Source: a virus
Length of the DNA: 64,000 nucleotides
Strand: one strand, 5' to 3'
IMG/VR virus record: IMGVR_UViG_3300017917_003822
Coordinates: 206,630-270,629 of that record
Shown in pieces: positions 2,389-52,579 of the stretch. Each line of letters begins with the position of its first letter. Position 1 is the stretch's first letter. The position numbers and the translations under genes were made by a program. The notes beneath the pieces were generated by a model. The model was not told the origin of the DNA, made no database searches, and saw only the letters and a list, made by a program, of their open reading frames with translations.

Positions 2389-2688
2389 ATGGATTTATCA
2401 ACTTACAAATTTCCGGAAGTAACCGGTGCAGACCTAGCATTTCCGACATTCGACACAACAAAGGAGCTAGTAGATGAAGCAAAAAGAAGGAACCCTGTGA
2501 AGGGTATGAAAAAGTTTTCCGAACTATTCTACAGCGGAGGAGAAATAAAACTAAAGGAAGACGTAAAGGGCACATGGAAAGAAAACGCCTATCTTTATGC
2601 AAGAGCACTGATGGGGAGCTGGGCACCTAAACACGAGAACAAGGAGTTGGTTGTAGGCATGATTTTCGAAGAATGTCTAGTTCTTTAG
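2389..2688 (+). CDS. hypothetical protein
   Basis: 99-aa ORF. Confidence 0.35.
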   Translation: MDLSTYKFPEVTGADLAFPTFDTTKELVDEAKRRNPVKGMKKFSELFYSGGEIKLKEDVKGTWKENAYLYARALMGSWAPKHENKELVVGMIFEECLVL

Positions 2689-2692
2689 TGGT

Positions 2693-3481
2693 ATGAGCGA
2701 GAGTAAATCTCTATTTAAGGCCTTTATCAGGGTGGTAAAATCCATCTCGGAAAGGGATAATTATTTCCTTGGTGGATTTGGTGCGGTTGAGGTTGTGAGA
2801 GAACCTCTAATAGAGGCCAAAGACAAATCTGAGGTTAAGAAGATATTACTGGAGAGATATCCCCAATTTTTTACCAACGGTAAAGTCCACGAAAGAGAAA
2901 CTAAGGATAATGCTCAATTTTTCTATGTTGTAATATACCCTCTATACGAATGGGAGAAAAAACAAATCGAAGAGGGAGAATGGATATGTGAAAGTTGTGG
3001 ACATATTCATGAAAATCAATATCTGTCAAAACCAAGAATTAACGAGAGGTTATTTGGAACAGATAAGCTCTTCTGTAGGAGTGACGAGGATCTTTGTCTG
3101 GAGAATTACAAGAAGGAATATTATAAGGATGTAGATCTTCCAGATGATCTAGCATACATCAAAAAAGATAGTCCAAATTACATCTATAAATGTACGGAGA
3201 AAGCAACAGGTAAAAGCTACATAGGTAAAACTAGAAATGCTCCATTCTTTAGATGGTGGAATCACCTAACGCACTCAAGCAGTCCCTTTGGAATTTATCT
3301 AAGACAAACCAAATTGAGTGATTGGACTTTCGAAGTTCTTGAGGAGCTGCCAGGAAATATTGATGAGAGCGAAGTTTTTAGAATAGAATCTGAGTACATA
3401 ATGAAATACGATAGCATTCAGAATGGCTATAATACGGTAATTAGTAATAAGAAGGTTCTGGCTGATAACAACGATAACTAA
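2693..3481 (+). CDS. GIY-YIG nuclease domain protein (possible free-standing homing endonuclease) with N-terminal CxxC region
   Basis: C-terminal YIYKCTEKATGKSYIGKT...R..W.H...E...NGYN is the GIY-YIG signature. CESCGH lies upstream. Confidence 0.6.
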   Translation: MSESKSLFKAFIRVVKSISERDNYFLGGFGAVEVVREPLIEAKDKSEVKKILLERYPQFFTNGKVHERETKDNAQFFYVVIYPLYEWEKKQIEEGEWICESCGHIHENQYLSKPRINERLFGTDKLFCRSDEDLCLENYKKEYYKDVDLPDDLAYIKKDSPNYIYKCTEKATGKSYIGKTRNAPFFRWWNHLTHSSSPFGIYLRQTKLSDWTFEVLEELPGNIDESEVFRIESEYIMKYDSIQNGYNTVISNKKVLADNNDN

Positions 3482-3532
3482 CTTTTTGTAGCTTGTTTCA
3501 GTTGCAAATTATTAGCTAAACATGTAAAAATT

Positions 3533-3724
3533 ATGGATAAGTGGAATTACGATAAAAGAGTTAGAGAATTATCTCAAAAAATTGAACAGTATAAAATACA
3601 CGCTAAACGTGAAATTGAAAACAATAAAGTTTGTCATCCAAGCAAAGTGAGAAATAATTCTCAACGATATTTGGAAATCTGTAAACAAAGGTATAAGGAT
3701 TTTACAGGTGAGGACTATGAATAA
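3533..3724 (+). CDS. hypothetical protein (AT-rich island)
   Basis: 63-aa ORF in the compositionally distinct 3.5-4.9 kb island. Confidence 0.3.
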   Translation: MDKWNYDKRVRELSQKIEQYKIHAKREIENNKVCHPSKVRNNSQRYLEICKQRYKDFTGEDYE

Positions 3725-3799
3725 TTTTTATTGCTTATAACGTTCCCACGCTTGGCGAAGTGGCGGATGTAAAGCACTAAATTTTTAATTAAACAAATT

Positions 3800-4018
3800 A
3801 TGAAAAAGAACAAAACTCGAAATATAGACAAACAACTTCAAAAATTGTTATATGAACAATATGGTGAAGAATACACTCAATGGTATATGAAAACTTTTGA
3901 TGTTAAATTATATTTTGATGGAGCGGAAACATCAGATAGAGGTTATTTAACAGATAGAGAGTTTGACGAATGGAAAGAAGAAAAATGGAAACAATTTTTG
4001 TCCAAGTATGGTTATTAA
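3800..4018 (+). CDS. hypothetical protein (AT-rich island)
   Basis: 72-aa ORF preceded by the TATAACGTT...CTAAATTT motif. Confidence 0.3.
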   Translation: MKKNKTRNIDKQLQKLLYEQYGEEYTQWYMKTFDVKLYFDGAETSDRGYLTDREFDEWKEEKWKQFLSKYGY

Positions 4019-4114
4019 AAATTTATTATATATAACGTTTTCCGTGTATAATAAGTGGCGTACACGATAAACCAAGCCACTAAATTTAAAAATTAACTTT
4101 AAAATACAAAACAA

Positions 4115-4399
4115 ATGAAAAATTTAAAACTTAGAAGCCATTTTTTATACACGTTGTTATGTGTAGTTTTTTTAACATCTTGTAATTGTGATAAACAAAA
4201 AAAAGAAATTATTATTGAAGAAAATAATCATCAAGAAGATTATTACATTTACAATGATACATTACAAAATAATGCAATTCAAGAAAAAAATAATAGTAGC
4301 GGTGTAGGTATCACAACAAGTAGTAAATTAGGTGTAGAAGTAACAGAAGGTGTTTATATTAATTCAAGCGGTGAGTTAGAATTAGGATTTGGTTTGTAA
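4115..4399 (+). CDS. putative lipoprotein
   Basis: N-terminus MKNLKLRSHFLYTLLCVVFLTSC: signal peptide plus lipobox Cys, Bacteroidetes style. Confidence 0.45.
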   Translation: MKNLKLRSHFLYTLLCVVFLTSCNCDKQKKEIIIEENNHQEDYYIYNDTLQNNAIQEKNNSSGVGITTSSKLGVEVTEGVYINSSGELELGFGL

Positions 4400-4474
4400 A
4401 ATTACACATAACGGTTTGCGTATTGGCGTTGTTGCCAATACTGATGTTAAATTGAAAAACTAAATTTGAAATAT

Positions 4475-4723
4475 ATGGAAAATGACAATATGAAACAAGA
4501 AGGCAATAACGCTAATACGCTGTTATCGGCAGTTGTTGTTCATCCACATCCGATAATTGAAATGCAAATAAAGAACTTTAAAAAAGATGAAGTTGGCTAC
4601 ATCGCTGAATGTATTTTATACAACAAAGAATTTAAAGAAGTAGAAAGCTCATTCTTTATTGACGAATATAGAGCCAACGAAATCATTGATTTAATGCAGA
4701 CGTTTTTGAACAATTGCCGATAA
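4475..4723 (+). CDS. hypothetical protein
   Basis: Track start 4466 is TTG. First ATG at 4475 gives MENDNMKQ... Confidence 0.3.
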
Positions 4724-4724
4724 A

Positions 4725-4907
4725 AAATATATTGATAATACTTCATCTATACACACTTTAAGACATTCATCATTTACAAATTTACTAGAATCTGGAACAG
4801 ATTTAAGGATAATTCAAAAAATTGCGGGACATTCAAGTTCCAAAACAACAGAAATCTACACCCATGTTTCGAATAATATCCTAAATAAAGTAAAACTTCC
4901 GATTTAA
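4725..4907 (+). pseudogene. remnant of tyrosine recombinase/integrase (C-terminal box II only, no start codon)
   Basis: Frame translates ...[52 protein letters not shown]. This is the HxxR...Y catalytic C-terminus of XerC/D-like integrases. No ATG in frame, and the catalytic N-terminal ~250 aa is absent. Confidence 0.6.
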
Positions 4908-4939
4908 TTTTTTTATGTCGAGATAATTAATTACTTTTG
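4908..4939 (+). promoter_or_regulatory. promoter-like motif copy 2
   Basis: TTTTTTT-ATGTCGAG-N9-TACTTTTG, upstream of 4972. Confidence 0.4.
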
Positions 4940-4971
4940 TTTTCTTAATAATCCACTATAAATCATAAAAA

Positions 4972-5541
4972 ATGGGACTAGATATCACGGTTTATAAACC
5001 AATTAAAGTAAAGGAGGAGGATTTTCAAAAGATTGAGGATTTTTTAAACATCGAAGACCACCCGGAACTTTCAGTGTTTTCTGATTTTATATTCGAGAAA
5101 GAAAACGAATACTATGATCTTGAAAACGAAGCCAGAGATCTGGGTTACAATCTTGAGGATTTAATCTGGACCGGAACATCTTTTGGACCGGAATCTGCTT
5201 ACACTTTCAAAGATAGTGATGGAAATGATGTTAAAATTATCATCACAAAAACAATCAAGAAAATTGATAAGTGTATTGCCATCGAGGAGGTTGGGTATCA
5301 GAGAAAAGGTGCGAATAAAAAATTCTATGAAGATAAGATATGGGACAGTCCATGTGTTATAGATCAGAAGACACTAAACAATCACTGGGAGACTTACTTT
5401 TCAAACCAAACCCCCGAGAGCAAAGGTGGATGGGGAAGCGGGGTTGAATATGAACAGGATGATGAGACCATGAGAAAAAACTTTAAGAAAAATATCATAG
5501 ATAAATTCATCGAGGGGGAAACTTTTGTCATATATCATTAG
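4972..5541 (+). CDS. hypothetical protein
   Basis: 189-aa ORF downstream of promoter motif 4908-4939. Confidence 0.4.
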   Translation: MGLDITVYKPIKVKEEDFQKIEDFLNIEDHPELSVFSDFIFEKENEYYDLENEARDLGYNLEDLIWTGTSFGPESAYTFKDSDGNDVKIIITKTIKKIDKCIAIEEVGYQRKGANKKFYEDKIWDSPCVIDQKTLNNHWETYFSNQTPESKGGWGSGVEYEQDDETMRKNFKKNIIDKFIEGETFVIYH

Positions 5542-5550
5542 GAGAGCTTT

Positions 5551-5775
5551 ATGAAAAATGAAACTATTATAAAAAAGGTTTTTAAGGAATTTGGTGAGAA
5601 CTTTAATGACTTAACAGGTAGTCAATTATTAGCTATTGATGAGTGTATGTTATTAGCAAGACAAGACAAAGCCAATAGAGTAATTAAAGAAATTGAAAAT
5701 CGCACTAATAAAGTGGGTTGTTTTTGGGCTGATGAGGAAAGAACGAAAAAAATAATCCATGGATACGGGAATTAA
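5551..5775 (+). CDS. hypothetical protein
   Basis: 74-aa ORF. Confidence 0.35.
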   Translation: MKNETIIKKVFKEFGENFNDLTGSQLLAIDECMLLARQDKANRVIKEIENRTNKVGCFWADEERTKKIIHGYGN

Positions 5776-5783
5776 GTAATATT

Positions 5784-6053
5784 ATGAGAGTTGGAGATTT
5801 ATATGAAATGGGATTCTTTCATAGAGATGGCAATTATGCAACATCCAAATGGATAGTTAAAGATGATGGATGGGGTGAAAATAGTTCAGCAACCATACAA
5901 TATAGACCAGGAAATGGGATCGTTTTGAATAGCGGAGACGATGTAGATTTTAGCAGATTTTCCCTCTGTATTTATGGTAATTCATCATGTCCCAGTATAC
6001 CAGTAAAAATAAGATCCAAGGAGGACCTGATTCAGCTGGAGAGATTCTTCTAA
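5784..6053 (+). CDS. hypothetical protein
   Basis: 89-aa ORF. Confidence 0.35.
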   Translation: MRVGDLYEMGFFHRDGNYATSKWIVKDDGWGENSSATIQYRPGNGIVLNSGDDVDFSRFSLCIYGNSSCPSIPVKIRSKEDLIQLERFF

Positions 6054-6603: not shown

Positions 6604-7683
6604 ATGAAATACGACATAAACATATTAAATAGCTATATTGATAATGGGCTGCTGGAAAAAAACCCACATCCAACATTACCTCTCGATATCTACAACTACT
6701 CCCGGGAGTGCCAATTTTCACGTCATTGGGATGAGATAACCCTCAACATGAGGGGCACAGTCTTAGACAGAGATGGAAATGTAGTAGCAAGAACATTTTC
6801 AAAATTCTTCAATCTGGAAGAACATCAACCCGAAGAAATTCCAAATGAATCATTTGACGTTTTTGAAAAAATGGATGGTTCACTGGGTATTTTATTTAAT
6901 TACAACGATCAGTGGATATTTGCAACTAAGGGATCATTCTCGTCAGATCAATCAATCAGAGGTAAGGAAATTTTGGAGAAGTACGACTATCAAAGTCTAG
7001 CGAAAGATTGCACATATTTATTCGAGATCATATATCCAGAAAATAGAATTGTCGTCAGCTACGATTTCGAAGATCTAGTACTATTAGCAATCATCAATAA
7101 CGAGGATGGCTATGAATATGACATACACTCGGAGGAGGCGCTTTCTGATGTACTGGATATCAAGGGTTTTAGAATTGTTAAAAAATACCATGGAGTTCAG
7201 GACTATAAGGAGCTTAAGAAAATCATAGATAACAATGCAGAGGGATTCGTCATCAGATTCAAATCTGGTTTCAGAATGAAGATCAAAGGGGAAGAGTATG
7301 TTAGACTCCATCGGCTTCTAACAAACTTCTCGAACATTGACATCTGGGAACTTTTGAAGAATGGGGAGGATCTTGGTAATTTTCTGGACAGAGTTCCTGA
7401 TGAATTTGATCTCTGGGTCAAGAATATTATCTCAGATCTAAGAAGACAGTACCTGGTAATCGAGGAATCAGCACATGAGGTCCATTCATCATTCTTTGTT
7501 GCGAGACCAGATTTTTCGAGAGAAGCGGGAAAGAAAGAATATGCTCTGTGGGTTAAAGAACAAGAAAAGAATTTGCAAGGTATATTATTTTGTCTGTATG
7601 ACGAGAAAAGGTATTCGGATCACATTTGGAAAATGATAAGACCGAAATACCAAAAACCATTTTGGAACAAAATTGAGGATTGA
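6604..7683 (+). CDS. rnlA: ATP-dependent RNA ligase, T4 RnlA (Rnl1) family
   Basis: MRGTVLDRDGNVVARTFSKFFNLEE and FEKMDGSLGILF...ATKGSFSSDQ align with T4 Rnl1 (ECRGIMFEMDGE...EKFFNLNE; TKEDGSL...SKGSIKSEQ). Motif I is KxDGS, motif IV is EGFVIR. Confidence 0.8.
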   Translation: MKYDINILNSYIDNGLLEKNPHPTLPLDIYNYSRECQFSRHWDEITLNMRGTVLDRDGNVVARTFSKFFNLEEHQPEEIPNESFDVFEKMDGSLGILFNYNDQWIFATKGSFSSDQSIRGKEILEKYDYQSLAKDCTYLFEIIYPENRIVVSYDFEDLVLLAIINNEDGYEYDIHSEEALSDVLDIKGFRIVKKYHGVQDYKELKKIIDNNAEGFVIRFKSGFRMKIKGEEYVRLHRLLTNFSNIDIWELLKNGEDLGNFLDRVPDEFDLWVKNIISDLRRQYLVIEESAHEVHSSFFVARPDFSREAGKKEYALWVKEQEKNLQGILFCLYDEKRYSDHIWKMIRPKYQKPFWNKIED

Positions 7684-16417: not shown

Positions 16418-17560
16418 ATGGAAAGAAAATTAGCAAGTATACAGAAAATAGGAAAAGTTCTGCCTATAGAGGGAGCAGATGCAATCGAGATGGTAATGGT
16501 TAACTCGTGGAAGGTCGTTTCTAAGAAGGATGAATTCAAGGAAGGTGACTATTGCGTTTATTTTGAAATTGATTCATTTCTTCCAATTAGAGAGGAATTT
16601 GAGTTCTTGAGAAAATCCTCCTATAGAAAGATGGGGGATCTTGAGGGATTCAGACTAAAAACCATAAAACTTAGAGGACAGGTTAGTCAGGGGCTTTGTT
16701 TACCAATCTCCATATTGGAGGGAGATGGTGAAATGAAAATTGGAATCAGCAAGCAACCTTGGGGAGATCAATTACAGCTTGGTCCTTATGACGATGCTCT
16801 TGTTATTCAAGAAGGAGTTGATGTCACAGAACATTTGGGAGTTGTTAAATTTGAACCACCTATACCGGCTGAACTTGCAGGAAAGGTTAAAGGAAATTTC
16901 CCTGGTTTCATCAGAAAAACAGACGAGGAAAGAATCCAGAATATGACGAAGCAATTTGAGGAGATGAAGTCACATCAATACTACATCACGGAAAAACTTG
17001 ACGGTAGTTCAGCAACTTACTATTTTAGAGACGGGGTTTTCGGTGTCTGTTCAAGAAACCTTGAGTTAGCGGATCCTGGAGAATTTGTACCTGGTACTAT
17101 CATTGGTGAAGATGGTGTCGAAAGACCCAAAAAAGAAAATACATTCTGGAAGGTTGCTAGAGAGCTAAAGATAGCAGAAAAACTAGGATCTCTTAATCAA
17201 AATTACGCAATCCAGGGGGAGCTTATTGGGGAAGGAGTGCAAGGAAATCCTTACAAGATCAAAGGACACACACTTAGAATATTTAATGTATTCAATATCG
17301 ATCAACAGGAGTATCTGGGACTTGATGAAATGAGGGATTTTCTTTCGAAGGTTAATGTTGACGATTCACCATTGGAATTGGTTCCTGTCATTGATGAAAA
17401 CTACAAGCTGCATGGAACCATCGAGGAAATTCTACAATATGCTGAGGGTAAATCAGTTCTTCATAATGAGGCCGAGAGAGAAGGAATTGTTATCAGAAAC
17501 AAAGACAAGAGCATCTCATTCAAGGCTATTTCTAATAAATTCTTGCTAAAGGAAAAATAG
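16418..17560 (+). CDS. second ATP-dependent RNA ligase (Rnl5/DraRnl-like: N-terminal OB-like domain + KxDG nucleotidyltransferase)
   Basis: Motif I ITEKLDGSS, motif IV EGIVIRNK, motif V KAISNKF. N-terminal ASIQKIGKVLPIEGADAIEMV...WKVVSKKDEFKEGDYCVYFEIDSFLP. Confidence 0.55.
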   Translation: MERKLASIQKIGKVLPIEGADAIEMVMVNSWKVVSKKDEFKEGDYCVYFEIDSFLPIREEFEFLRKSSYRKMGDLEGFRLKTIKLRGQVSQGLCLPISILEGDGEMKIGISKQPWGDQLQLGPYDDALVIQEGVDVTEHLGVVKFEPPIPAELAGKVKGNFPGFIRKTDEERIQNMTKQFEEMKSHQYYITEKLDGSSATYYFRDGVFGVCSRNLELADPGEFVPGTIIGEDGVERPKKENTFWKVARELKIAEKLGSLNQNYAIQGELIGEGVQGNPYKIKGHTLRIFNVFNIDQQEYLGLDEMRDFLSKVNVDDSPLELVPVIDENYKLHGTIEEILQYAEGKSVLHNEAEREGIVIRNKDKSISFKAISNKFLLKEK

Positions 17561-35796: not shown

Positions 35797-37239
35797 ATGA
35801 CAACTATTTTATCTTTGGTATCTTACATAGTACCTGCAATTATCGGAATCTTTATTTTAATTTATATTCTCTCATTAAGGAGAATTGTACCAACCAATGT
35901 GGTTCACATCGTTCAAAGAGGAAACCAAACTGTTTCATACGGAACAAATAAACAATCAAATGTTTATTATGAATGGCCAAGCTGGCTACCTAAATTAGGG
36001 GTAACTGTTCGTGTTCTTCCTGTATCTAACTTCGATATTGATTTGAAACGTTATGAAGCTTATGATAAAGATCGTGTACCATTTGTCGTCGACGTTAAAG
36101 CTTTCTTCCATATTTCGAATACAAACATTGCAGCTGAAAAGGTTGAATCTTTCGAAGAACTTAGAGGCCAATTAGAAAATGTAGTTCAAGGTGCGGTTCG
36201 TTCAATCTTAGCTAAATCTAAATTGGAAGAGATCATGGAGGAACGTTCAGTCTTTGGTAAACAATTTACCGACGCAGTCAACACAGATTTACAAAACTGG
36301 GGTGTTGAAGCAATAAAAAGTATTGAATTAATGGACGTAAGAGACGCTGACGGATCTCACGTAATCCAACAGATCATGGCAAAACGTATGTCAGCAATCG
36401 ACATGGAATCAAGAACTGAAGTTGCTAAAAACCAGAAACTTGCGAAACAGGCAGAGCTTGAAGCCAAAAAAGAGATTGATGTAACTACGGCGGAGACTGA
36501 GAGAATTGCCGGAGAAGCACAAGCACAATCTCAACAAGCAATCGGTATCGCCAAAGCAGAATCGATGAAGAAAACTGGTATTGCCGAACAAGAGTCAATT
36601 TCAGAAATTGCCAGAGCCGAAAGAGCCACTGCAGAACAGCAAATGGAGGTTGTTAAGGTCAACCAGGTAAAACAAGCAGAGATCGACAGAGAGCGTGAAA
36701 TTATTACTGCCGAACAGGAAAAACAAAAAATGGAAATCCAGGCACAGGCTGATAAATTTAGAATTGAAACCGAAGCTGCTGCTCAATTAGAAGCAAAAAG
36801 AAAAGAGGCTGAGGCTGTTAAAACCGTCGGATCCGCAGAAGCAGAGGTTATTAAGGCTAAGGGTATTTCAGAGGCTGAATCTAAAAAGGCAATGGAATTG
36901 GCAGGGGTAACTGCACAAACAACACTGGCGAAAGAAATTGGTGAGAACAAGCCTTATCAAGAGTACTTAATTAAAGTTAAGGAAGTTGAAGTTAGTCAAG
37001 TTGTTGGAGTTGCTCAGTATGAGTCTATGGCAAAAGCATTATCAGCAGCTGACTTAAAGCTATTAGTTAACAGTGGAGATGTTCATTCTGGAATTGGTAA
37101 GTTATCTGACTTATTTACATCAAAGGGTGCATCTCAGATTAACGGGTTACTTGAAGGTCTAAAACAAACCGACGAGGGCAAGAATTTATTAGAGATGCTG
37201 AACGGCTTAACTTCGTCTAAGGTTACTAAATCTGAATAA
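35797..37239 (+). CDS. SPFH/band-7 (flotillin-like) domain protein with long coiled-coil
   Basis: N-terminal TM, then an SPFH-like region (VVHIVQRGNQ...VPFVVDVKAFFHISN...). A long E/A/K/Q-rich heptad region follows. Confidence 0.65.
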   Translation: MTTILSLVSYIVPAIIGIFILIYILSLRRIVPTNVVHIVQRGNQTVSYGTNKQSNVYYEWPSWLPKLGVTVRVLPVSNFDIDLKRYEAYDKDRVPFVVDVKAFFHISNTNIAAEKVESFEELRGQLENVVQGAVRSILAKSKLEEIMEERSVFGKQFTDAVNTDLQNWGVEAIKSIELMDVRDADGSHVIQQIMAKRMSAIDMESRTEVAKNQKLAKQAELEAKKEIDVTTAETERIAGEAQAQSQQAIGIAKAESMKKTGIAEQESISEIARAERATAEQQMEVVKVNQVKQAEIDREREIITAEQEKQKMEIQAQADKFRIETEAAAQLEAKRKEAEAVKTVGSAEAEVIKAKGISEAESKKAMELAGVTAQTTLAKEIGENKPYQEYLIKVKEVEVSQVVGVAQYESMAKALSAADLKLLVNSGDVHSGIGKLSDLFTSKGASQINGLLEGLKQTDEGKNLLEMLNGLTSSKVTKSE

Positions 37240-47916: not shown

Positions 47917-48591
47917 ATGAAAAATTTACATATATTACCGACATCCAAACCAAGTAGATTATATGAATTTGGTGGTGCATATTATATTCAAGACAAGCCA
48001 CAAGAAAATTTTAGAAGTTATAATATCTACATCACTGGGGAGGAAAAAATTAGGATAGGGGATTGGGTAATTGATGATGATTATGACGAACCAGTATTAT
48101 ATAAAGCAGACAAATATTTTTTTGATATTGGTAAGGAAGCTAGAAAAATCATATTAACAACCGACACAGAATTAATTGACGGAGGGGTACAGAACATCCA
48201 AGATGTATTTTTAAGTTGGCTGATCCAGAATCCAACTTGTGAGAAGGTCGAGGTTAGAAAAAATCCAAAAGTGAGTGGAATAGTAAAAGGTTTGGGTATT
48301 AAAAGTTTCGACAACGGTTATAAAATAATAATACCCAAGAATAAGAATAAAGAAGAGAAAGTTAACGAACCTCAAAACTTAAAAAACTTTAAAAAATTAG
48401 ACAGTGCAGCCATGGACGATTCCATAAAGAAAAAAGAAGCAATTGACGGGATTATTGGGGGATTATTTAAGAAATATTCAAACAATACTTCACTAGCTGA
48501 GGGTGATTATGAACACCTAATGGATAGCGAAGATTTTAGAGAAGCTTCTATTGAATTGATTGAATGGTTAGAAAAATTTAAAAAGGAATAG
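47917..48591 (+). CDS. paralog family A member 3 (more diverged)
   Basis: MKNLHILPTSKPSRL...NIYITGEEKIRIGDW...ILTTDTELIDGGVQNIQDVFLSWLIQNPTC. Confidence 0.45.
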   Translation: MKNLHILPTSKPSRLYEFGGAYYIQDKPQENFRSYNIYITGEEKIRIGDWVIDDDYDEPVLYKADKYFFDIGKEARKIILTTDTELIDGGVQNIQDVFLSWLIQNPTCEKVEVRKNPKVSGIVKGLGIKSFDNGYKIIIPKNKNKEEKVNEPQNLKNFKKLDSAAMDDSIKKKEAIDGIIGGLFKKYSNNTSLAEGDYEHLMDSEDFREASIELIEWLEKFKKE

Positions 48592-48594
48592 TTC

Positions 48595-48864
48595 ATGAGC
48601 ATTTTTTGTAAATTGGGATTTCATTCATATATCGAAAAAACCATCCATATTAATTGGCTAATGTCAACGGATCCATCAATCGAATGGGCAAAAAAACATT
48701 CAGGATGGCATGAATTTAGAGAGTGTGAAAGATGCGGTAACATTCAACAAAAAAGGATCTCTGTCTTCTATGGAAGGGTTTCTTATATAAGCAAATGGTC
48801 CGAGATGAATAAGGAATCGGAGATGGTTTTTAGAATGTATCTGGGTTTTAATAAAAAAAATTAA
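48595..48864 (+). CDS. hypothetical protein
   Basis: 89-aa ORF with CERCG. Confidence 0.3.
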   Translation: MSIFCKLGFHSYIEKTIHINWLMSTDPSIEWAKKHSGWHEFRECERCGNIQQKRISVFYGRVSYISKWSEMNKESEMVFRMYLGFNKKN

Positions 48865-48865
48865 T

Positions 48866-49234
48866 ATGGAGGGGGTACTGAAAATACGAAACATAGATTC
48901 ATTAAGAAAGCTTAGCTTAAAAAGGGCTATGGGTAAAAGAAAACACGTTTCTGAGATGTATAAATCAATTGACGTGACTCTAAAAACTCTTGAGGAAATT
49001 CAAGAACTCACACCGGAATTACTATGTAGATTAATCAGGAAAAAGGGATTGGTTGGAAAGGAGATTTATAAATTGGATCATGTTATATTTTGCAGACAGC
49101 GAGAGATCCCGGTGAGAGAAGAGGATGTTAATGCACACCTAAACAGACAATCAAATTTAAAAATACCGGTGTTGTTGGTTCCTTATGAATTTAGAGATAA
49201 GTATTCAAGATACATTTACGAGCATTTCAAATAG
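48866..49234 (+). CDS. hypothetical protein
   Basis: 122-aa ORF. Confidence 0.35.
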   Translation: MEGVLKIRNIDSLRKLSLKRAMGKRKHVSEMYKSIDVTLKTLEEIQELTPELLCRLIRKKGLVGKEIYKLDHVIFCRQREIPVREEDVNAHLNRQSNLKIPVLLVPYEFRDKYSRYIYEHFK

Positions 49235-49253
49235 TCACTACAATTCATTAAAA

Positions 49254-49287
49254 TATTTTTTTGAACCGGGATTCTGTTCTATATTAG
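49254..49287 (+). promoter_or_regulatory. promoter-like motif copy 12
   Basis: TTTTTTT-GAACCGGG-N9-TATATTAG. Confidence 0.35.
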
Positions 49288-49310
49288 CACTATCATTAAA
49301 AAAAAAGCAC

Positions 49311-49484
49311 ATGGCAAAACCTAGAGTTATTCTACAAGAAAAATACAAAAAAGGTGTGGTTGTAGATAAAAATGAAATAAAGAGGATGGTTGATGAAAAC
49401 ATCGAAAAAATAGTTGTTGAAATCAGAGAGACTCTTAAATACAGCGACGGAACTGAGGGTATAGTTATCGAAATCAGATTCTAA
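49311..49484 (+). CDS. small hypothetical protein
   Basis: The track ORF 49185-49484 contains a promoter motif at 49254-49287. In-frame ATG at 49311 (MAKPRVIL) is preferred. Confidence 0.25.
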   Translation: MAKPRVILQEKYKKGVVVDKNEIKRMVDENIEKIVVEIRETLKYSDGTEGIVIEIRF

Positions 49485-49495
49485 ATCTAGTCTAT

Positions 49496-49864
49496 ATGGA
49501 AAAAGAATTTATACCTTATGAACAGGCATTAGCTTTAAAAGAATTAGGATTTGATGAACCATGTTTTTGGTTATATGATGGAAAAATACTTAAAACTCAA
49601 ATTATACCAAGTAGTAATTCTGATTTTAAATATATTGATATAGTTCAAGCACCACTTAAACAACAAGCATTTAGATGGTTTAGAGAAAAGTATAAATTAT
49701 GTGGTTTAATTGAGATTGGAACACAAGAGTTTTCTTATCAAGTTTTTAATAATAAAGGGAATAGACAACTTGGAACTGAACCTATAAGCTATAATGGAAC
49801 CTACGAAGAAGCAGAACTTGAATGTTTAAAGAAACTAATTGAAATTGTTAAAGATAAGAAATAA
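49496..49864 (+). CDS. paralog family B member 1
   Basis: MEKEFIPYEQALALKELGFDEPCF...FRWFREKYKL...GTYEEAELECLKKLIEIVKDKK. Confidence 0.4.
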   Translation: MEKEFIPYEQALALKELGFDEPCFWLYDGKILKTQIIPSSNSDFKYIDIVQAPLKQQAFRWFREKYKLCGLIEIGTQEFSYQVFNNKGNRQLGTEPISYNGTYEEAELECLKKLIEIVKDKK

Positions 49865-50271
49865 TGGAAAAAGAATTTGTGCCTTATGAACAAGCACTAA
49901 CTTTAAAAGAACTTGGTTTTGATGAACCTTGTTTAGGTTACTACTTAACTAATTTGTTAACAAACGAAGTAAAACTATTTATTGATAATAGAACAGGACT
50001 TTCATCATTTGAAAAAACTACACCTGCTCCAACATTCTCTCAAGTATTTAGATGGTTTAGAGAGAAGTATAACTTGAGAGGATTTATTGGATTTAGACCA
50101 AATGTAAAAAAATTTGATTGTCATGTTTATGATATGTCTCTGTCTGGCAAAGAATATGTTGAACAAAGAACTATGGAAGAGTTTAACAAAGACCCTAAAG
50201 TTGGAACCTACGAAGAAGCAGAACTTGAATGTTTAAAGAAACTAATTGAAATTGTTAAAGATAAGAAATAA
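49864..50271 (+). CDS. paralog family B member 2
   Basis: C-terminal ~80 nt (including stop and next start) is identical to member 1 (49797-49875 vs 50204-50282). Confidence 0.4.
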   Translation: MEKEFVPYEQALTLKELGFDEPCLGYYLTNLLTNEVKLFIDNRTGLSSFEKTTPAPTFSQVFRWFREKYNLRGFIGFRPNVKKFDCHVYDMSLSGKEYVEQRTMEEFNKDPKVGTYEEAELECLKKLIEIVKDKK

Positions 50272-50777
50272 TGGAAAAAGAATTTATTCCTTACGAACAA
50301 GCATTAGTTTTAAAAGAATTAGGATTTGATGAACCTTGTTTTAAATATGTTTATATTGGAGATACTGGAAATAACTTTGATCATTATCTTGAAGTAGAAC
50401 CATCAAAGGCAAAAAATTATAATGAGGATGATTTATGTATATCACAGCCAACTTACTCAGCAGCATTTAGATGGTTTAGAGAGAAGTATAATATTCATCA
50501 TTCAATGAGACCCGTGGTTGGATCTAAAAATGGATACGACTCATATCCAATTTTGGGGTGGGAATCAGATATTTTTGCTACAAATCAAGGAACTCAAAAT
50601 TCATATTACATGGGATATCCGGTCTGTGAGTGGTTCACAGCAACACTAGATAATTTTGACGAGGGTGACACATTGAAGGATTTGAATTTAGATCCACTTA
50701 AATATGAAGAGGCAGAGCTTAAATGTTTAAAAAATATTATAAAATACGTCAAAAAAGAAAAGCTGAATGGAAGATAA
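50271..50777 (+). CDS. paralog family B member 3 (diverged C-terminus)
   Basis: Same N-terminus MEKEFIPYEQALVLKELGFDEPCF and the FRWFREKYN motif. Confidence 0.4.
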   Translation: MEKEFIPYEQALVLKELGFDEPCFKYVYIGDTGNNFDHYLEVEPSKAKNYNEDDLCISQPTYSAAFRWFREKYNIHHSMRPVVGSKNGYDSYPILGWESDIFATNQGTQNSYYMGYPVCEWFTATLDNFDEGDTLKDLNLDPLKYEEAELKCLKNIIKYVKKEKLNGR

Positions 50778-50883
50778 CTCATTAGGTACCGGTATAGGTA
50801 TGATCCTAGTTTTTATTGTTATTCCATTATTCTCAGAAATTATTTCCATTATCCTTAGTTGGAACAAAAGGAATAGGAAATAG
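50767..50883 (+). CDS. small hydrophobic peptide (38 aa)
   Basis: MEDNSLGTGIGMILVFIVIPLFSEIISIILSWNKRNRK. Directly precedes the first tRNA-like gene. Confidence 0.2.
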   Translation: MEDNSLGTGIGMILVFIVIPLFSEIISIILSWNKRNRK

Positions 50884-50894
50884 TAAAATGAAGG

Positions 50895-50982
50895 AGTCAG
50901 GTGACTGGTGTCTGCACAGTAAGCTGTGTGTTGGTTCGATCCCAACGAGGTGTAAATTCAGGTTCGAATCCTGTCCTGACTA
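50895..50982 (+). tRNA. tRNA-like gene U1 (non-canonical: two T-loop-like hairpins)
   Basis: 7-bp acceptor AGTCAGG/CCTGACT, D-like hairpin ACTG-GTGTCTGCA-CAGT, internal GTTGG-TTCGATC-CCAAC, T arm CAGG-TTCGAAT-CCTG, discriminator A. No encoded CCA. 88 nt. Confidence 0.4.
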
Positions 50983-51335
50983 CTAAGGTTAAACATTGAA
51001 TACCTTTGTAAATGTTAGAAGTGAGGAAGAGTACCTCAATAAAAAATAAGTTCAATTAAGAACAAATAATTTACATAAAGATACTATCAGTAATGGTAGA
51101 TGTGTTGTTCCCTTGAGAAAGGAATGGGCAAAGGTGGCTAATTAAAGTTAACAACAACTCCACACAACACAAATGAGTTCTCAGCAAGTAGTTCGAAAAG
51201 CTATGCAGTTTTAAAACTCTTATGGAGCCTTACAAACTAGAACTACGTGACCCTACTCCACTTGGGCGATTCACAGATGAGTTGTTAAGACAGGTTTGAA
51301 TCCTGTATTGTCCTACCGAAAGAGGGTGCTAAAAA

Positions 51336-52486: not shown

Positions 52487-52564
52487 AGTCAGGTGGCGGA
52501 ATTGGTAGCGCATTTCTCTATACCAACGAGAATCGGAGTGCAGGTTCGAATCCTGTCCTGACTA
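52487..52564 (+). tRNA. tRNA-like gene U4 (canonical length, 78 nt; anticodon arm irregular so isotype unassigned)
   Basis: AGTCAGG-TG-GCGGAATTGGTAGCGC (Leu-like D arm) ... GCAGG-TTCGAAT-CCTGT-CCTGACT-A. Best anticodon stem TCTC/GAGA leaves an ATACCAA loop. Confidence 0.45.
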
Positions 52565-52579
52565 CTAAAAATTGGAAGT

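Follow-up and report, generated by a model that had tools for sequence, protein, structure and literature searches.

The systems closest to the locus described here are integrons and the related clusters of integron cassette sites. In integron integrases, acquisition of the I2 helix is presented as the step from double-strand to single-strand recombination (PMC7790495). Surveys with IntegronFinder reported integrons to be almost absent from Bacteroidetes (PMC9024848). CALINs have nevertheless been described in phages, one of them in a Polaribacter phage, and most of the sites tested were recombined by IntI1 (PMC9892861). In the Freya, Leef and Ingeline phages, the integrases were read as markers of lysogeny, and cassettes were not mentioned (Bartlau et al. 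2021, PMC8776804). In the literature, we found no published description of a variant in which a Xer-type integrase is associated with hairpin cassettes.

We analysed a 64,000-nucleotide stretch of viral DNA (the window; positions 206,630 to 270,629 of IMG/VR record IMGVR_UViG_3300017917_003822). A preliminary description, made from the sequence alone, had drawn attention to an AT-rich island at 3482-4960. As judged from sequence comparisons, this island is very probably a decayed integron-like cassette array of Bacteroidota phages. The presence of hairpin sites, the rule that links successive cassettes, the extent of the homology blocks and an integrase stump together argue for a cassette array, rather than for the cargo of an endonuclease or a family of promoters. 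The island is read as follows.

3476-3566, + strand: degenerate sequence, doubtful as a recombination site, on the left border of the island (covariance model R1, 17.1 bits, E 0.19).
3483-3741, + strand: cassette 1, with ORF 3533-3724 and terminal box TTATAAC (3735-3741); left boundary uncertain.
3735-3853, + strand: recombination site 1 (attC-like), decayed (R1, 42.5 bits, E 1.2e-6).
3742-4036, + strand: cassette 2, with ORF 3800-4018 (72 aa) and terminal box ATATAAC (4030-4036).
4030-4162, + strand: recombination site 2 (attC-like; R1, 62.6 bits, E 8.7e-11).
4037-4412, + strand: cassette 3, with hairpin site, putative lipoprotein ORF 4115-4399 and terminal box ACATAAC (4406-4412).
4406-4528, + strand: recombination site 3 (attC-like), intact (R1, 56.6 bits, E 1.5e-9).
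4413-4723, + strand: cassette 4, with hairpin site, ORF and truncated terminal box CGATAA (4718-4723).
4721-4724, + strand: deletion junction, with the crossover box of cassette 4 joined to an internal position of the integrase gene (codon ~206).
4724-4907, + strand: integrase remnant, last ~61 codons and stop (PF00589, E 1.7e-13).
4908-4967, + strand: right end of the insert, beyond the stop codon of the integrase; backbone sequence again from 4968 onwards.

The island had been described as AT-rich with a codon usage of its own, and both statements were borne out. Its GC content is 0.278 as compared to 0.361 for the 64-kb window, the lowest of all 1479-nt segments (minimum elsewhere, 0.295). 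With respect to the 14 flanking genes, the island prefers TTA for leucine (60% vs 25%), GAA for glutamate (91% vs 59%) and GGT for glycine (71% vs 32%), and GC3 is 0.13-0.35 as compared to 0.24-0.45. Across the family of arrays described below, the GC content of the array minus that of its flanks was -0.006 on average, with no systematic difference. The low GC content of the island therefore reflects the cassette pool as compared to this particular phage and is not a general rule. It may be the mark of a shared pool (arrays at ~0.30-0.36) rather than of the host phage (0.36).

Three short ORFs had been counted in the island. Short ORFs are indeed present, but four are listed, all on the same strand (3533-3724, 3800-4018, 4115-4399 and 4466/4475-4723). 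The ORF of cassette 1 (63 aa) had no match in Pfam or PHROG, and no function could be assigned from these collections to that of cassette 2. The gene previously called a lipoprotein (4115-4399, 94 aa) has an N-terminus that, read by eye, fits this assignment, with basic residues, a hydrophobic stretch and LTSC; we keep it as a putative lipoprotein. The ORF of cassette 4 probably starts at ATG 4475 and encodes 82 aa, as do its homologues, with its stop codon at 4721-4723. Around the island, the DNA of 2400-6000 matched none of 50,697 phage records. Protein searches of phage records with the 99-aa gene 2389-2688 and with the gene at 4972 gave no match, nor did an IMG/VR scan with the latter.

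The preliminary description had also noted an element repeated three times upstream of the ORFs. The three copies are present where they had been placed, but they correspond only to the left (5') part of hairpin sites of 119-133 nt. This was seen with a covariance model, R1, trained on 60 elements that all come from other contigs. Over the 64 kb, R1 gave exactly three significant full-length matches, all on the + strand and all in the island. Counted alone in the window, the motifs ATAACGKTT and CTAAATTT are not more frequent than expected by chance; the signal therefore resides in the composite element. In the window sites, a right arm is located 65-80 nt downstream of the GC-rich left arm. 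Thus, ATAACG(G)TT is best read as a crossover box and the GC-rich segment as the left arm of a long hairpin. Copy 2 had first been read as short repeats in an interleaved, pseudoknot-like pairing, a view that we gave up on finding the long-range right arms.

The sites differ in their state of preservation (the arrow marks the crossover point). Site 3 has a box ACATAAC↓G, 19-nt arms (4418-4436 and 4502-4520) and a 3' box GTTATCG (4522-4528). Its full-length hairpin has a predicted energy of -19.2 kcal/mol (z = -4.65; 0/200 shuffles as stable), as compared to -14.4 kcal/mol for the bottom strand. Site 2 has a box ATATAAC↓G, arms at 4042-4059 and 4137-4153 that are 88% complementary over 17 nt, and a 3' box GTTATGT (4156-4162). 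Its loop contains the CTAAATTT motif and the start codon of the putative lipoprotein, and its fold is weakly better than that of shuffled sequences (z = -0.97). Site 1 keeps the box TTATAAC↓G, the left arm and the 3' box GTTATAT (3847-3853); its right arm is unpaired and the long-range fold is absent (z = 0.08). At the left edge, the AACTAAC box of 3476-3566 shares bases with the GIY-YIG stop codon. This sequence folds no better than shuffles (z = +0.7) and does not pair with the next box, leaving cassette 1 with no convincing site of its own.

The repeats had been interpreted as a private promoter/operator set serving three moron genes, on an island mobilised by the neighbouring GIY-YIG endonuclease. 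Taken as a whole, we consider this model very unlikely. Each element does lie upstream of an ORF, with CTAAATTT(G) 7-28 nt before the ATG, and one copy matches the Bacteroidetes -7 motif TAnnTTTG exactly, the two others at 7/8 positions. However, upstream of the family cassette ORFs this motif is not enriched (5/85, as compared to 2.9 expected from shuffles). A scan for sigma-70-like promoters remained at chance level (13 vs 11.3), as did a terminator scan. Moreover, private promoters would leave the right arms, their covariation and the cassette rule unexplained. The promoter/operator claim is thus not supported, the elements consisting of a crossover box and a hairpin arm; it is possible that a promoter is present inside the hairpin loops.

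In order to place the island in a wider context, 79 IMG/VR loci with integrase homologues were surveyed. In many contigs of Bacteroidota phages, arrays are found directly upstream of a Xer-like integrase of ~266 aa. We counted 184 hairpin elements per 281 kb upstream of the integrase (+ strand) and 24 per 411 kb downstream. Because the elements used for statistics were chosen by a hairpin scan with AAC/GTT cores imposed, the percentage of paired positions is partly circular; the upstream enrichment, the cassette rule and the cassette homology blocks are independent of this selection. Compensatory double changes occur at 13/19 stem pairs. The covariation score is 0.67, as compared to 0.16 for shuffles (0/500 reach the observed value) and 0.09-0.12 for slid controls. 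The lengths of the sites cluster at ~70-75, 85-95 and 120-135 nt, and the box consensus is nnMTAAC↓G ... TGTTAKnn, with a bulge of 3-4 nt behind AAC↓G. Only the core is common with the extended RYYYAAC/GTTRRRY consensus, which fits 7% of the elements. At E values up to 0.001, R1 had no match in the Acidobacteria loci searched.

The boxes of successive elements are related by a simple rule. In 87/128 consecutive pairs, complementarity is complete between the 3' box of the first element and the 5' box of the second. On average, 3.19 of the 4 variable positions match, as compared to 1.82 in shuffled pairings and 2.01 between the two boxes of the same element. The window follows this cassette rule three times, with GTTATAT/ATATAAC, GTTATGT/ACATAAC and GTTATCG/CGATAA(C). 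In cassette 2, for instance, the 3' box at 3847-3853 is complementary to the terminal box at 4030-4036, and the ends of cassette 4, whose terminal box in its intact form is CGATAAC, are 93% complementary over 15 nt. In the family, cassettes that obey the rule have a median length of 472 bp and their longest ORF is co-oriented with the integrase in 85/85 cases. Among the 100 largest ORFs of the array regions, 13 encode DNA-modification enzymes, from which we infer that part of the cargo serves anti-restriction functions.

At the integrase end of the arrays, a predicted terminal box located 43-54 nt before the integrase ATG is followed by TAYTATATGTA at 35/56 loci. For integrases of the L177 or L181 type, the region includes AAC↓TATTATATATGTAA, and homology between loci starts at the AAC↓TAYTATATGTA junction. 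We take this junction as a putative attI-like site, which is deleted in the window. The ends of homology blocks fall 16 times at AAC and twice at GTT. Crossover at the 3' GTT box, with the hairpin 3' of the ORF, was considered and rejected on account of the attI junctions and of this 16:2 ratio. The 5' AAC box is also favoured by the breakpoints in Freya and by the ends of cassettes 3 and 4.

These data bear on whether the hairpins might instead act at the RNA level, as terminators, insulators or translational regulators, the integrase being an unrelated prophage scar. In 167/184 elements, folding is better for the sense strand than for its complement, G-T (G-U) wobbles are conserved at two stem positions and several start codons are located in loops, as expected for RNA elements. 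However, such a function explains neither the complementarity of boxes between elements nor homology blocks that end at AAC, neither the attI-like junction 52 nt before the integrase nor a stump that begins at a crossover box, and an Rfam search of the island gave no match. We regard an RNA role as a replacement for recombination as extremely improbable, but it could coexist with it.

The cassettes of the window were then found elsewhere as discrete units. The DNA of cassette 3 has homologues (82-97% identity) in six contigs, L181-L186, where homology extends only from 4030/4040 to 4412/4416 and other neighbours are found on either side; L181 has an intact integrase four cassettes further downstream. 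The DNA of cassette 4 has homologues (85-90%) in six other contigs, L187-L192, only from 4401/4409 to 4723. These copies end with ...AACAATTGCCGATAAC↓ and are followed each time by a different site, and in L187 and L188 intact integrases are found downstream. For both cassettes, homology runs exactly from AAC box to AAC box. In addition, relatives of the phage lack the island. In the syntenic contigs L177 and L178 and in an ENA contig, the GIY-YIG homologue is directly followed by the homologue of gene 4972. L177 has 23 nt where the window has 3451-4967, DNA homology stopping at 3450 and resuming at 4968; its own intact integrase is at another locus, upstream of a helicase. The island had been proposed to be a horizontally acquired mobile cassette, and alignment with relatives had been suggested in order to see whether it is an indel. 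Recurrence of two cassettes in unrelated arrays, together with the absence of the island from L177 and L178, supports this proposal.

The same comparisons bear on the endonuclease half of the earlier model. The gene at 2693-3481 encodes a C-terminal GIY-YIG domain (Pfam, 20.6 bits for a cut-off of 22.6) and matches the PHROG 'homing endonuclease' (E 2.7e-11). It adjoins the island, and a GIY-YIG/NUMOD3 gene also occurs in L187/L188, which could suggest mobilisation by such an enzyme. However, its homologue in L177 (71% aa identity) is kept where the island is absent. In L177 and L178 the endonuclease thus occurs without the island, and the units themselves end at AAC boxes rather than at boundaries of the endonuclease type. 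The GIY-YIG gene is therefore conserved backbone, present with or without the island, and is not retained as the mobilising agent. In L187/L188, the GIY-YIG/NUMOD3 gene is located at the far end of the array; a link with the GIY-YIG gene of the window was rejected, no homology being detected between the L187 endonuclease and that of the window (E 0.18).

The island had been said to end in an integrase fragment. We confirmed this, as 4728-4907 matches Pfam PF00589 with an E value of 1.7e-13, over profile positions 127-170 of 172. The remnant corresponds to residues 206-266 of a 266-aa full-length homologue, retains the HxxR, GH and catalytic Y motifs, and shares 93, 90 and 64% aa identity with the integrases of L177, L087 and L003, respectively. 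It is the sole integrase-like sequence in the window. No start codon was seen in the stretch read directly (4707 to ~4850), and for this frame the ORF list has no entry of 30 aa or more. Homology to the integrase locus of L177 reaches position 4920. Only the last ~61 integrase codons are retained; the attI-like site and the ~205 first codons are gone.

The position of the break is precise. The junction reads CCGAT-AA-AAAATATATTG in the window, as compared to TATAC-AA-AAAGTATATTG in the intact L087 gene and CCGAT-AA-C in intact cassettes. Intact copies of cassette 4 end with ...GCCGATAAC↓, whereas in the window ...GCCGATAA runs directly into codon ~206 of the integrase. The junction therefore corresponds to an AA microhomology at the crossover box of cassette 4. 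Most likely, the integrase caused the deletion by aberrant recombination of its regular site with a pseudo-site (..ATACAA↓A..) located within the integrase gene itself; a simple microhomology-mediated deletion is also possible.

The full-length family integrase resembles Xer recombinases. That of L003 scores 150 bits against TIGR02249, 'integron integrase', below the cut-off of 265 and with the match split in two stretches. Its best NCBIfam matches are XerA (176 bits), XerD (163) and XerC (156). In the alignment with VchIntIA (2a3v), residues 176-210 of the query face residues 179-261 of the chain, ~48 residues being absent. The family integrase lacks the IntI-specific insertion (I2 helix), a point against the integron-like reading insofar as that insertion is described as the step toward single-strand recombination (PMC7790495).

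Two further explanations are weighed against these results. According to the first, the island is an ordinary CALIN that came from a bacterial integron and needs a bacterial IntI. The attC architecture, with AAC/GTT boxes flanking an imperfect hairpin, is what such a cluster would show, and the window sites (119-133 nt) are within the 57-141 nt range of attC lengths. However, the arrays adjoin their own Xer-like integrase devoid of the IntI insertion, only 7% of the boxes fit RYYYAAC/GTTRRRY, the ORFs are inverted with respect to classical cassettes in 85/85 cases, and Bacteroidetes are reported to be nearly integron-free (PMC9024848). An ordinary CALIN is thus very improbable. According to the second explanation, the modules are moved by the XerC/XerD proteins of the host at dif-like sites and the phage protein is a lysogeny integrase. 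Xer enzymes (XerCD) can indeed use a folded single-stranded site, that of the CTX phage. The similarity scores given above and the interpretation of the Freya, Leef and Ingeline genes as signs of lysogeny (PMC8776804) go in the same direction. Still, no 28-bp dif-like structure was seen in the elements as read by eye, the arrays are always physically linked to the phage integrase, whose 5' end carries a conserved site, and Freya variants differ at the integrase junction only. Movement by host Xer proteins is accordingly judged very improbable, and we favour a cassette array served by its own phage integrase.

The nearest annotated relatives of the family integrase are the genes of Freya, Leef and Ingeline (34-36% identity). 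In the aligned stretches that we compared, Polaribacter phages Freya_1, 2, 5, 8 and 10 share 99.8-100% identity. They differ from one another cassette-wise, immediately upstream of the integrase, and in Freya_1, 2, 5 and 8 the breakpoints are all located at TTGTTnnnAAC↓. In the Freya and Leef loci searched, R1 gave no match at E values up to 0.001, and the Freya evidence is therefore one of analogous architecture rather than of site homology.

Overall, the data suggest the following mechanism. In an intact platform, which occurs in phages and also prophages of Bacteroidota, one-ORF cassettes are located upstream of, and co-oriented with, a Xer-like recombinase of ~266 aa. Each cassette spans the interval between two successive crossover boxes (nnMTAAC↓G), and comprises an imperfect hairpin of 75-135 nt, a (T)GTTAKnn box, the ORF and a terminal box that pairs with the former. 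The last cassette adjoins the attI-like AAC↓TAYTATATGTA site, ~52 nt before the integrase start. Such an arrangement would be expected of cassettes that leave the array as circles and enter again at the crossover box. The sites would act as folded single strands, like integron attC, the folded strand being the sense strand of the ORFs and of the integrase, that is the geometric equivalent of the 'bottom' strand of integrons; the better folding of this strand and the two conserved wobbles speak indirectly for such a mode of action. In the window, four cassettes (3483-3741, 3742-4036, 4037-4412 and 4413-4723) are left, the break being exactly at the box of cassette 4. After loss of the integrase, the sites would be decaying, site 3 remaining intact, site 2 being weakened and site 1 having lost its right arm. 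The cassettes would now stay in place, except where a related integrase can serve them in trans. The island is foreign and modular, and no longer self-mobile.

Whether Bacteroidota phages, ranging in size between siphoviruses of ~40 kb and contigs of several hundred kb, own a class of integrons in which a short Xer-like integrase without I2 reshuffles self-contained hairpin cassettes is a wider question, to which we give about even chances. The recombinase of the family lacks a domain considered to be the hallmark of integron integrases. If an integrase without I2 captures hairpin cassettes, the IntI-specific domain is not required for hairpin recombination, and the system may either have arisen independently or be a relic of integron evolution before IntI. 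If active, it would offer a testable system for folded-DNA recombination without I2 and would explain the hypervariable small-gene regions found beside the 'integrases' of flavobacterial phages. It would also provide a general route for the exchange of counter-defence genes among these phages. The mobile cargo pool, which includes methyltransferases and unknown small proteins, would be worth screening for anti-defence functions.

Comparison with the known systems can be summarized as follows. Like the family studied here, Freya, Leef and Ingeline carry small ORFs upstream of, and on the same strand as, the integrase gene; Freya differs by using short TTGTTnnnAAC boxes as sites. Phage CALINs (17 published; Qi et al. 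2023, PMC9892861) also are attC-like clusters without a working integrase, and DNA methyltransferases are common among their cargo as well. They were found with bacterial attC models and taken for integron components that bacterial IntI can use, whereas the window contains the remnant of a platform with a different integrase of its own, namely three sites detected by the family model and an integrase stump. The dif modules of Acinetobacter plasmids are likewise gene modules bounded by recombination sites and moved by a Xer enzyme without the IntI insertion (PMC7399989). The Xer/dif and CTX systems differ in that they use host enzymes and 28-bp dif sites (two 11-bp arms and a 6-bp spacer), with neither hairpin arrays nor a dedicated attI-integrase pair.

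The closest likeness is to integrons. Both have one-ORF cassettes of a few hundred bp and covarying hairpins with constant AAC/GTT boxes. In both, the 3' box belongs to the next cassette and a conserved site, attI in integrons and attI-like in the family, is located at the 5' end of the integrase gene. Read in the sense of the integrase, the order crossover box, hairpin, GTT, attI, integrase is that of the classical bottom strand. The differences lie in the integrase, of ~266 aa and without the I2 insertion, in the carriers, which are phages of Bacteroidota, and in the inactive state of the window copy. Finally, the ORFs of the family are on the integrase strand and read toward attI, with the hairpin 5' of the ORF, so that no promoter of the Pc type can serve these cassettes.

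The island at window positions 3482-4960 is in all likelihood a defunct copy of an integron-like platform. The preliminary description had singled it out as AT-rich with its own codon usage. It is indeed the lowest-GC 1479-nt stretch of the window (GC 0.278 vs 0.361 window-wide; next-lowest such stretch elsewhere, 0.295), and the synonymous codon choice of its ORFs differs from that of 14 flanking genes (Leu TTA 60% vs 25%, Glu GAA 91% vs 59%, Gly GGT 71% vs 32%). Short ORFs are present as reported, though they number four, not three, and all lie on the + strand. The GIY-YIG domain of the neighbouring gene product and the integrase fragment were also recovered. The features of the region are as follows.

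2693-3481: GIY-YIG gene, domain at the C-terminus of the product (Pfam, PHROG)
3533-3724, + strand: first island ORF (ORF listing)
3735-3853, + strand: attC-like hairpin element, site 1
3800-4018, + strand: second island ORF (ORF listing)
4030-4162, + strand: attC-like hairpin element, site 2
4115-4399, + strand: third island ORF, putative lipoprotein (ORF listing)
4406-4528, + strand: attC-like hairpin element, site 3
4466/4475-4723, + strand: fourth island ORF (ORF listing)
4728-4907: integrase remnant

Pfam and PHROG searches gave no significant match for any of the four island ORFs. The N-terminus of the third, MKNLKLRSHFLYTLLCVVFLTSC, shows features of a putative lipoprotein signal peptide, as judged by eye.

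Contig L177 (52.5 kb) carries a homologue of the gene at 4972 with 74% identity, and two further contigs have one as well. All three are syntenic with the window over at least 12 genes (70-93% aa identity), among them the GIY-YIG gene (71%) and its neighbour, the 99-aa gene at 2389-2688, and in all three the 4972 homologue directly follows the GIY-YIG gene. On L177, window 3451-4967 is replaced by 23 nt. Neither of the findings that would have refuted the preliminary description was made: composition is not uniform, nor is the segment present with conserved synteny in all relatives, and the island is foreign. The GIY-YIG gene, previously proposed as a possible mobilising agent, most probably does not have this role: it is kept in relatives without the island and is a backbone gene outside the mobile unit. 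A GIY-YIG/NUMOD3 endonuclease gene also stands at the distal end of a long cassette array in L187/L188 (1-582). Beyond the domain, no kinship of the window protein with the L187 endonuclease was detectable (E 0.18), and the two array-flanking positions are probably a coincidence. The 99-aa gene (L001 7940-8370; L003 5895-6324; L005 200-600) is the sole backbone gene that the window shares with five IMG/VR contigs to which it is not otherwise related. Matching boxes flank this gene in L001, GTTATGG on the upstream side and CCATAAC with a 58-nt hairpin on the downstream side; it thus looks like a cassette there, but is box-free backbone in the window and L177.

The repeated element upstream of the ORFs had been read as a promoter/operator. 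The repeats exist, but this reading is most probably wrong, as each is half of a larger hairpin site. A repeat finder located the complement of each copy's GC-rich part 65-80 nt downstream, the arms being 4043-4059/4137-4153 at site 2 (17 nt, 88% complementary) and 4418-4436/4502-4520 at site 3 (19 nt, 89%). The units start with nnATAAC|G, the bar marking the crossover point, and finish with TGTTATnn.

The IMG/VR contig L003 was reached through its homologue of the 99-aa gene. Behind that gene, L003 has three short ORFs with similar inverted repeats of 87-136 nt between them, and then a complete 266-aa tyrosine recombinase whose C-terminus is ~63% identical to the window fragment. With the L003 integrase as query, 117 relatives were retrieved in IMG/VR (80 loci kept) and 199 in GTDB genomes, the closest genomic matches being from Flavobacterium and other Bacteroidota. 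The hairpin scan called for YAAC...GTTR 45-175 nt apart, pairing of AAC with GTT, 18 or more outer pairs and a free energy no higher than -12 kcal/mol. On the integrase strand, 184 elements were found in 281 kb upstream of the integrases, as compared to 24 in 411 kb downstream; their lengths cluster at ~70-75, 85-95 and 120-135 nt.

Integron cassettes are circularly permuted units cut at a fixed box point, and complementarity between neighbouring boxes is their classical signature. In 87 of 128 consecutive pairs, the 3′ box of an element was fully complementary, at four variable positions, to the next 5′ box (for example GTTAGTA then TACTAAC). Mean complementarity was 3.19/4; shuffled pairings gave 1.82, and the two boxes within one element 2.01. 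This relation between neighbours is the decisive evidence of integron-type cassette logic. When 60 elements were aligned, compensatory double changes were seen at 13 of 19 stem pairs, and the covariation score was 0.67 versus 0.16 for shuffles (0/500 reached it) and 0.09-0.12 for slid partners. The figure of 94% paired is partly circular since elements were selected for pairing; pair-type diversity, the cassette rule and positional enrichment are unaffected. For cassettes that obey the rule, the median length is 472 bp, and in 85/85 the longest ORF lies on the integrase strand, its stop codon ~10 nt ahead of the next box. We infer both the mode of expression and the functions of the cassettes. 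After the 3′ box of many elements (e.g. L003 6325-6340, L031, L043, L065), a sequence ..CGG(C)TTTTT(T)A... is found. It can sometimes pair with the inner right arm (GCCGAAA.../...TTTCGGC) as a terminator-like hairpin followed by a run of T, which may be an alternative RNA-level structure.

A covariance model trained solely on elements from other contigs was searched against both strands of the 64 kb. Exactly three significant matches were obtained, at 4030-4162 (62.6 bits), 4406-4528 (56.6 bits) and 3735-3853 (42.5 bits), along with a doubtful fourth at 3476-3566 (17 bits). The stretch of the window with the second-lowest GC, 48000-51000 (GC 0.31-0.32), gave no significant model match (weak partial ones, E 3 and 8.7) and no integrase similarity. 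The cassette rule holds in the window: GTTATAT (3847-3853) pairs with ATATAAC (4030-4036), GTTATGT (4156-4162) with ACATAAC (4406-4412) and GTTATCG (4522-4528) with CGATAA (4718-4723). Site 3 has a full hairpin fold (z = -4.65). Site 2 folds weakly (z = -0.97), two positions of its left arm differing from the homologous L181 and L184 sites (boundary sequences read by eye). At site 1 the right arm is gone (z = 0.08). This gradation fits decay following loss of the enzyme. Elsewhere, the model detected arrays next to homologues of the integrase, the genomes or MAGs being labelled Flavobacterium, Bacteroidales, Prolixibacteraceae, Chitinophagaceae, Bernardetia and Ignavibacteria. In the more distant relatives L102, L108, L109, L112 and L167 (genomes with integrases 41-45% identical), matches are on the strand opposite to the integrase and downstream of it, unlike the main-family geometry.

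Crossover is at the 5′ box (..AAC|), not the 3′ GTT box, according to four lines of evidence: the attI-like junction, homology block starts, the window cassettes and the Freya phages. The box that the last full element predicts sits, hairpin-free, 43-54 nt before the integrase ATG at 35 of 56 loci and precedes a conserved TAYTATATGTA, forming the attI-like junction. Where arrays share blocks of homology, 16 block starts lie within 12 nt of an AAC box and two within 12 nt of a GTT box. On the integrase sense strand the order is crossover box, hairpin, GTT box, ORF ... attI, integrase. Set against the established structure of classical integrons, this geometry equals that of the integron bottom strand, with the difference that family ORFs are sense on it. 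In 167/184 elements the sense strand gives a more stable fold than the complementary strand (means -16.7 vs -14.1 kcal/mol), and two G-T wobbles are conserved (59/60 and 52/60 sequences). A single-strand mechanism using the sense strand would be consistent with these data.

Six short contigs encode homologues of the putative lipoprotein (72-95% aa identity). DNA homology is confined to window 4030/4040-4412/4416, from one AAC box to the next, and the flanks differ on both sides across contigs. On L181, an intact 267-aa integrase with the attI-like junction stands four cassettes downstream of the lipoprotein cassette. Homologues of the fourth ORF, located in long arrays, have 82 aa, so that ATG 4475 is the likely start; DNA homology is confined to window 4401/4409-4723. 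Since the blocks run from box to box, the upstream hairpin travels with its ORF. The cassette units are thus 3742-4036, 4037-4412 and 4413-4723, a first unit at 3483-3741 being less certain. These cassette-bounded blocks and the indel relative to L177 bear out the earlier view of acquired modular DNA. In L183 (360-2060) and L184, the lipoprotein cassette is followed by an attI-like ACATAAC|TAGTTTATATGAG and by a 520-aa ORF that replaces the usual integrase; no Pfam domain was found in it.

The remnant at 4728-4907 is the C-terminal catalytic end of a tyrosine recombinase (PF00589, E 1.7e-13, profile positions 127-170 of 172) and the sole integrase-like sequence within the window. It has no start codon in the directly read stretch, and the ORF listing shows nothing of 30 aa or more in its frame. 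Intact copies of the fourth cassette end ...AACAATTGCCGATAAC|, the next site being different in each. In the window, ...AACAATTGCCGATAA is directly joined to AAAATATATTGAT, which aligns from codon ~206 on of the intact L087 and L177 integrase genes (remnant vs L177: 83% nt, 93% aa identity). The deletion therefore took away the last C of the box together with the attI-like site and ~205 codons. On L177 the intact integrase, with its attI-like junction, stands at another locus, upstream of a helicase inside which the window starts. The junction partners have only AA in common, and plain microhomology-mediated deletion is a possible origin of the truncation. One deletion end falls exactly at the normal cleavage position, and we infer that the deletion would be an aberrant integrase-mediated event at a pseudo-site (ATACAA|A) in the enzyme's own gene. 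Cassette insertion outside att sites is known for integron integrases, according to a preprint (bioRxiv 10.1101/2022.09.11.507474).

The integrase of Polaribacter phages Freya_1, 2, 5, 8 and 10 shows 34% identity to that of the family. These phages, from a set of isolates that also includes Freya_6 (L006/L008-L010/L171-L176), are 99.8-100% identical over compared aligned stretches, save immediately upstream of the integrase, where small ORFs spanning between 0 and 4.9 kb set them apart in a ladder. Breakpoints in Freya_1, 2, 5 and 8 are all at TTGTTnnnAAC|, and Freya_8 has an internal deletion of 903 bp from AAC| to AAC|. Freya_6 and Freya_10 diverge after the TTGTTACCAAC box, Freya_6 including a stretch without match in Freya_10. 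In the paper describing these phages the integrase gene is taken as a marker of lysogeny, and neither cassettes nor these differences are mentioned (PMC8776804). The family covariance model gave no match to the short Freya sites; the support is therefore by analogy, and the differences would argue for recent activity of this kind of platform.

The window also carries phage genes, those for a Dda-like helicase, two RNA ligases, a phosphoesterase and a kinase-like ATPase, the last four looking like an RNA-repair gene set; the ligase genes, 6604-7683 and 16418-17560, are distinct (PHROG 562, PHROG 968). A 480-aa protein (35797-37239) is 72% identical to a gene product of the 634-kb uncultured phage LR745206 and 44-48% identical to those of flotillin/SPFH-domain (or hypothetical) genes of large Brevundimonas, Xanthomonas, Ralstonia and Vibrio phages. 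These relatives suggest a very large phage as the window source. With one flanking gene having homologues in Cellulophaga phages, the source would be a large phage of a Bacteroidota host. The only tRNA, at 52487-52565, is a tRNA-Tyr with anticodon ATA (ARAGORN), which is unusual, the normal one being GTA.

The family integrase combines an N-terminal PF13495 and a catalytic PF00589 domain and scores best against XerA, XerD and XerC models. TIGR02249 gave 150 bits (cut-off 265) in a match split in two, and ~48 residues are absent at the IntI-specific insertion as compared to VchIntIA; under the usual definition, therefore, the enzyme does not count as an IntI. In the integron-like subgroup of tyrosine recombinases this insertion is 'not fully conserved' (Smyshlyaev et al., PMC8138268), so that insertion-less relatives were already known as proteins. 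A full-text search of open-access papers and bioRxiv found no description of their sites or cassettes and, as far as checked in this literature, the integron-like variant is undescribed so far. IntegronFinder surveys report integrons to be almost absent in Bacteroidetes (PMC9024848). Phage CALINs, one of them in a Polaribacter phage, have been published with methyltransferase cargo and recombination by IntI1 (PMC9892861). Similarly, 13 of the 100 largest ORFs of the family array regions encode DNA methyltransferases, Mom or related enzymes. Compared with classical integrons, the family thus differs by an integrase without the I2 insertion, by inverted cassettes each with its own hairpin site, and by its carriage in Bacteroidota phages.
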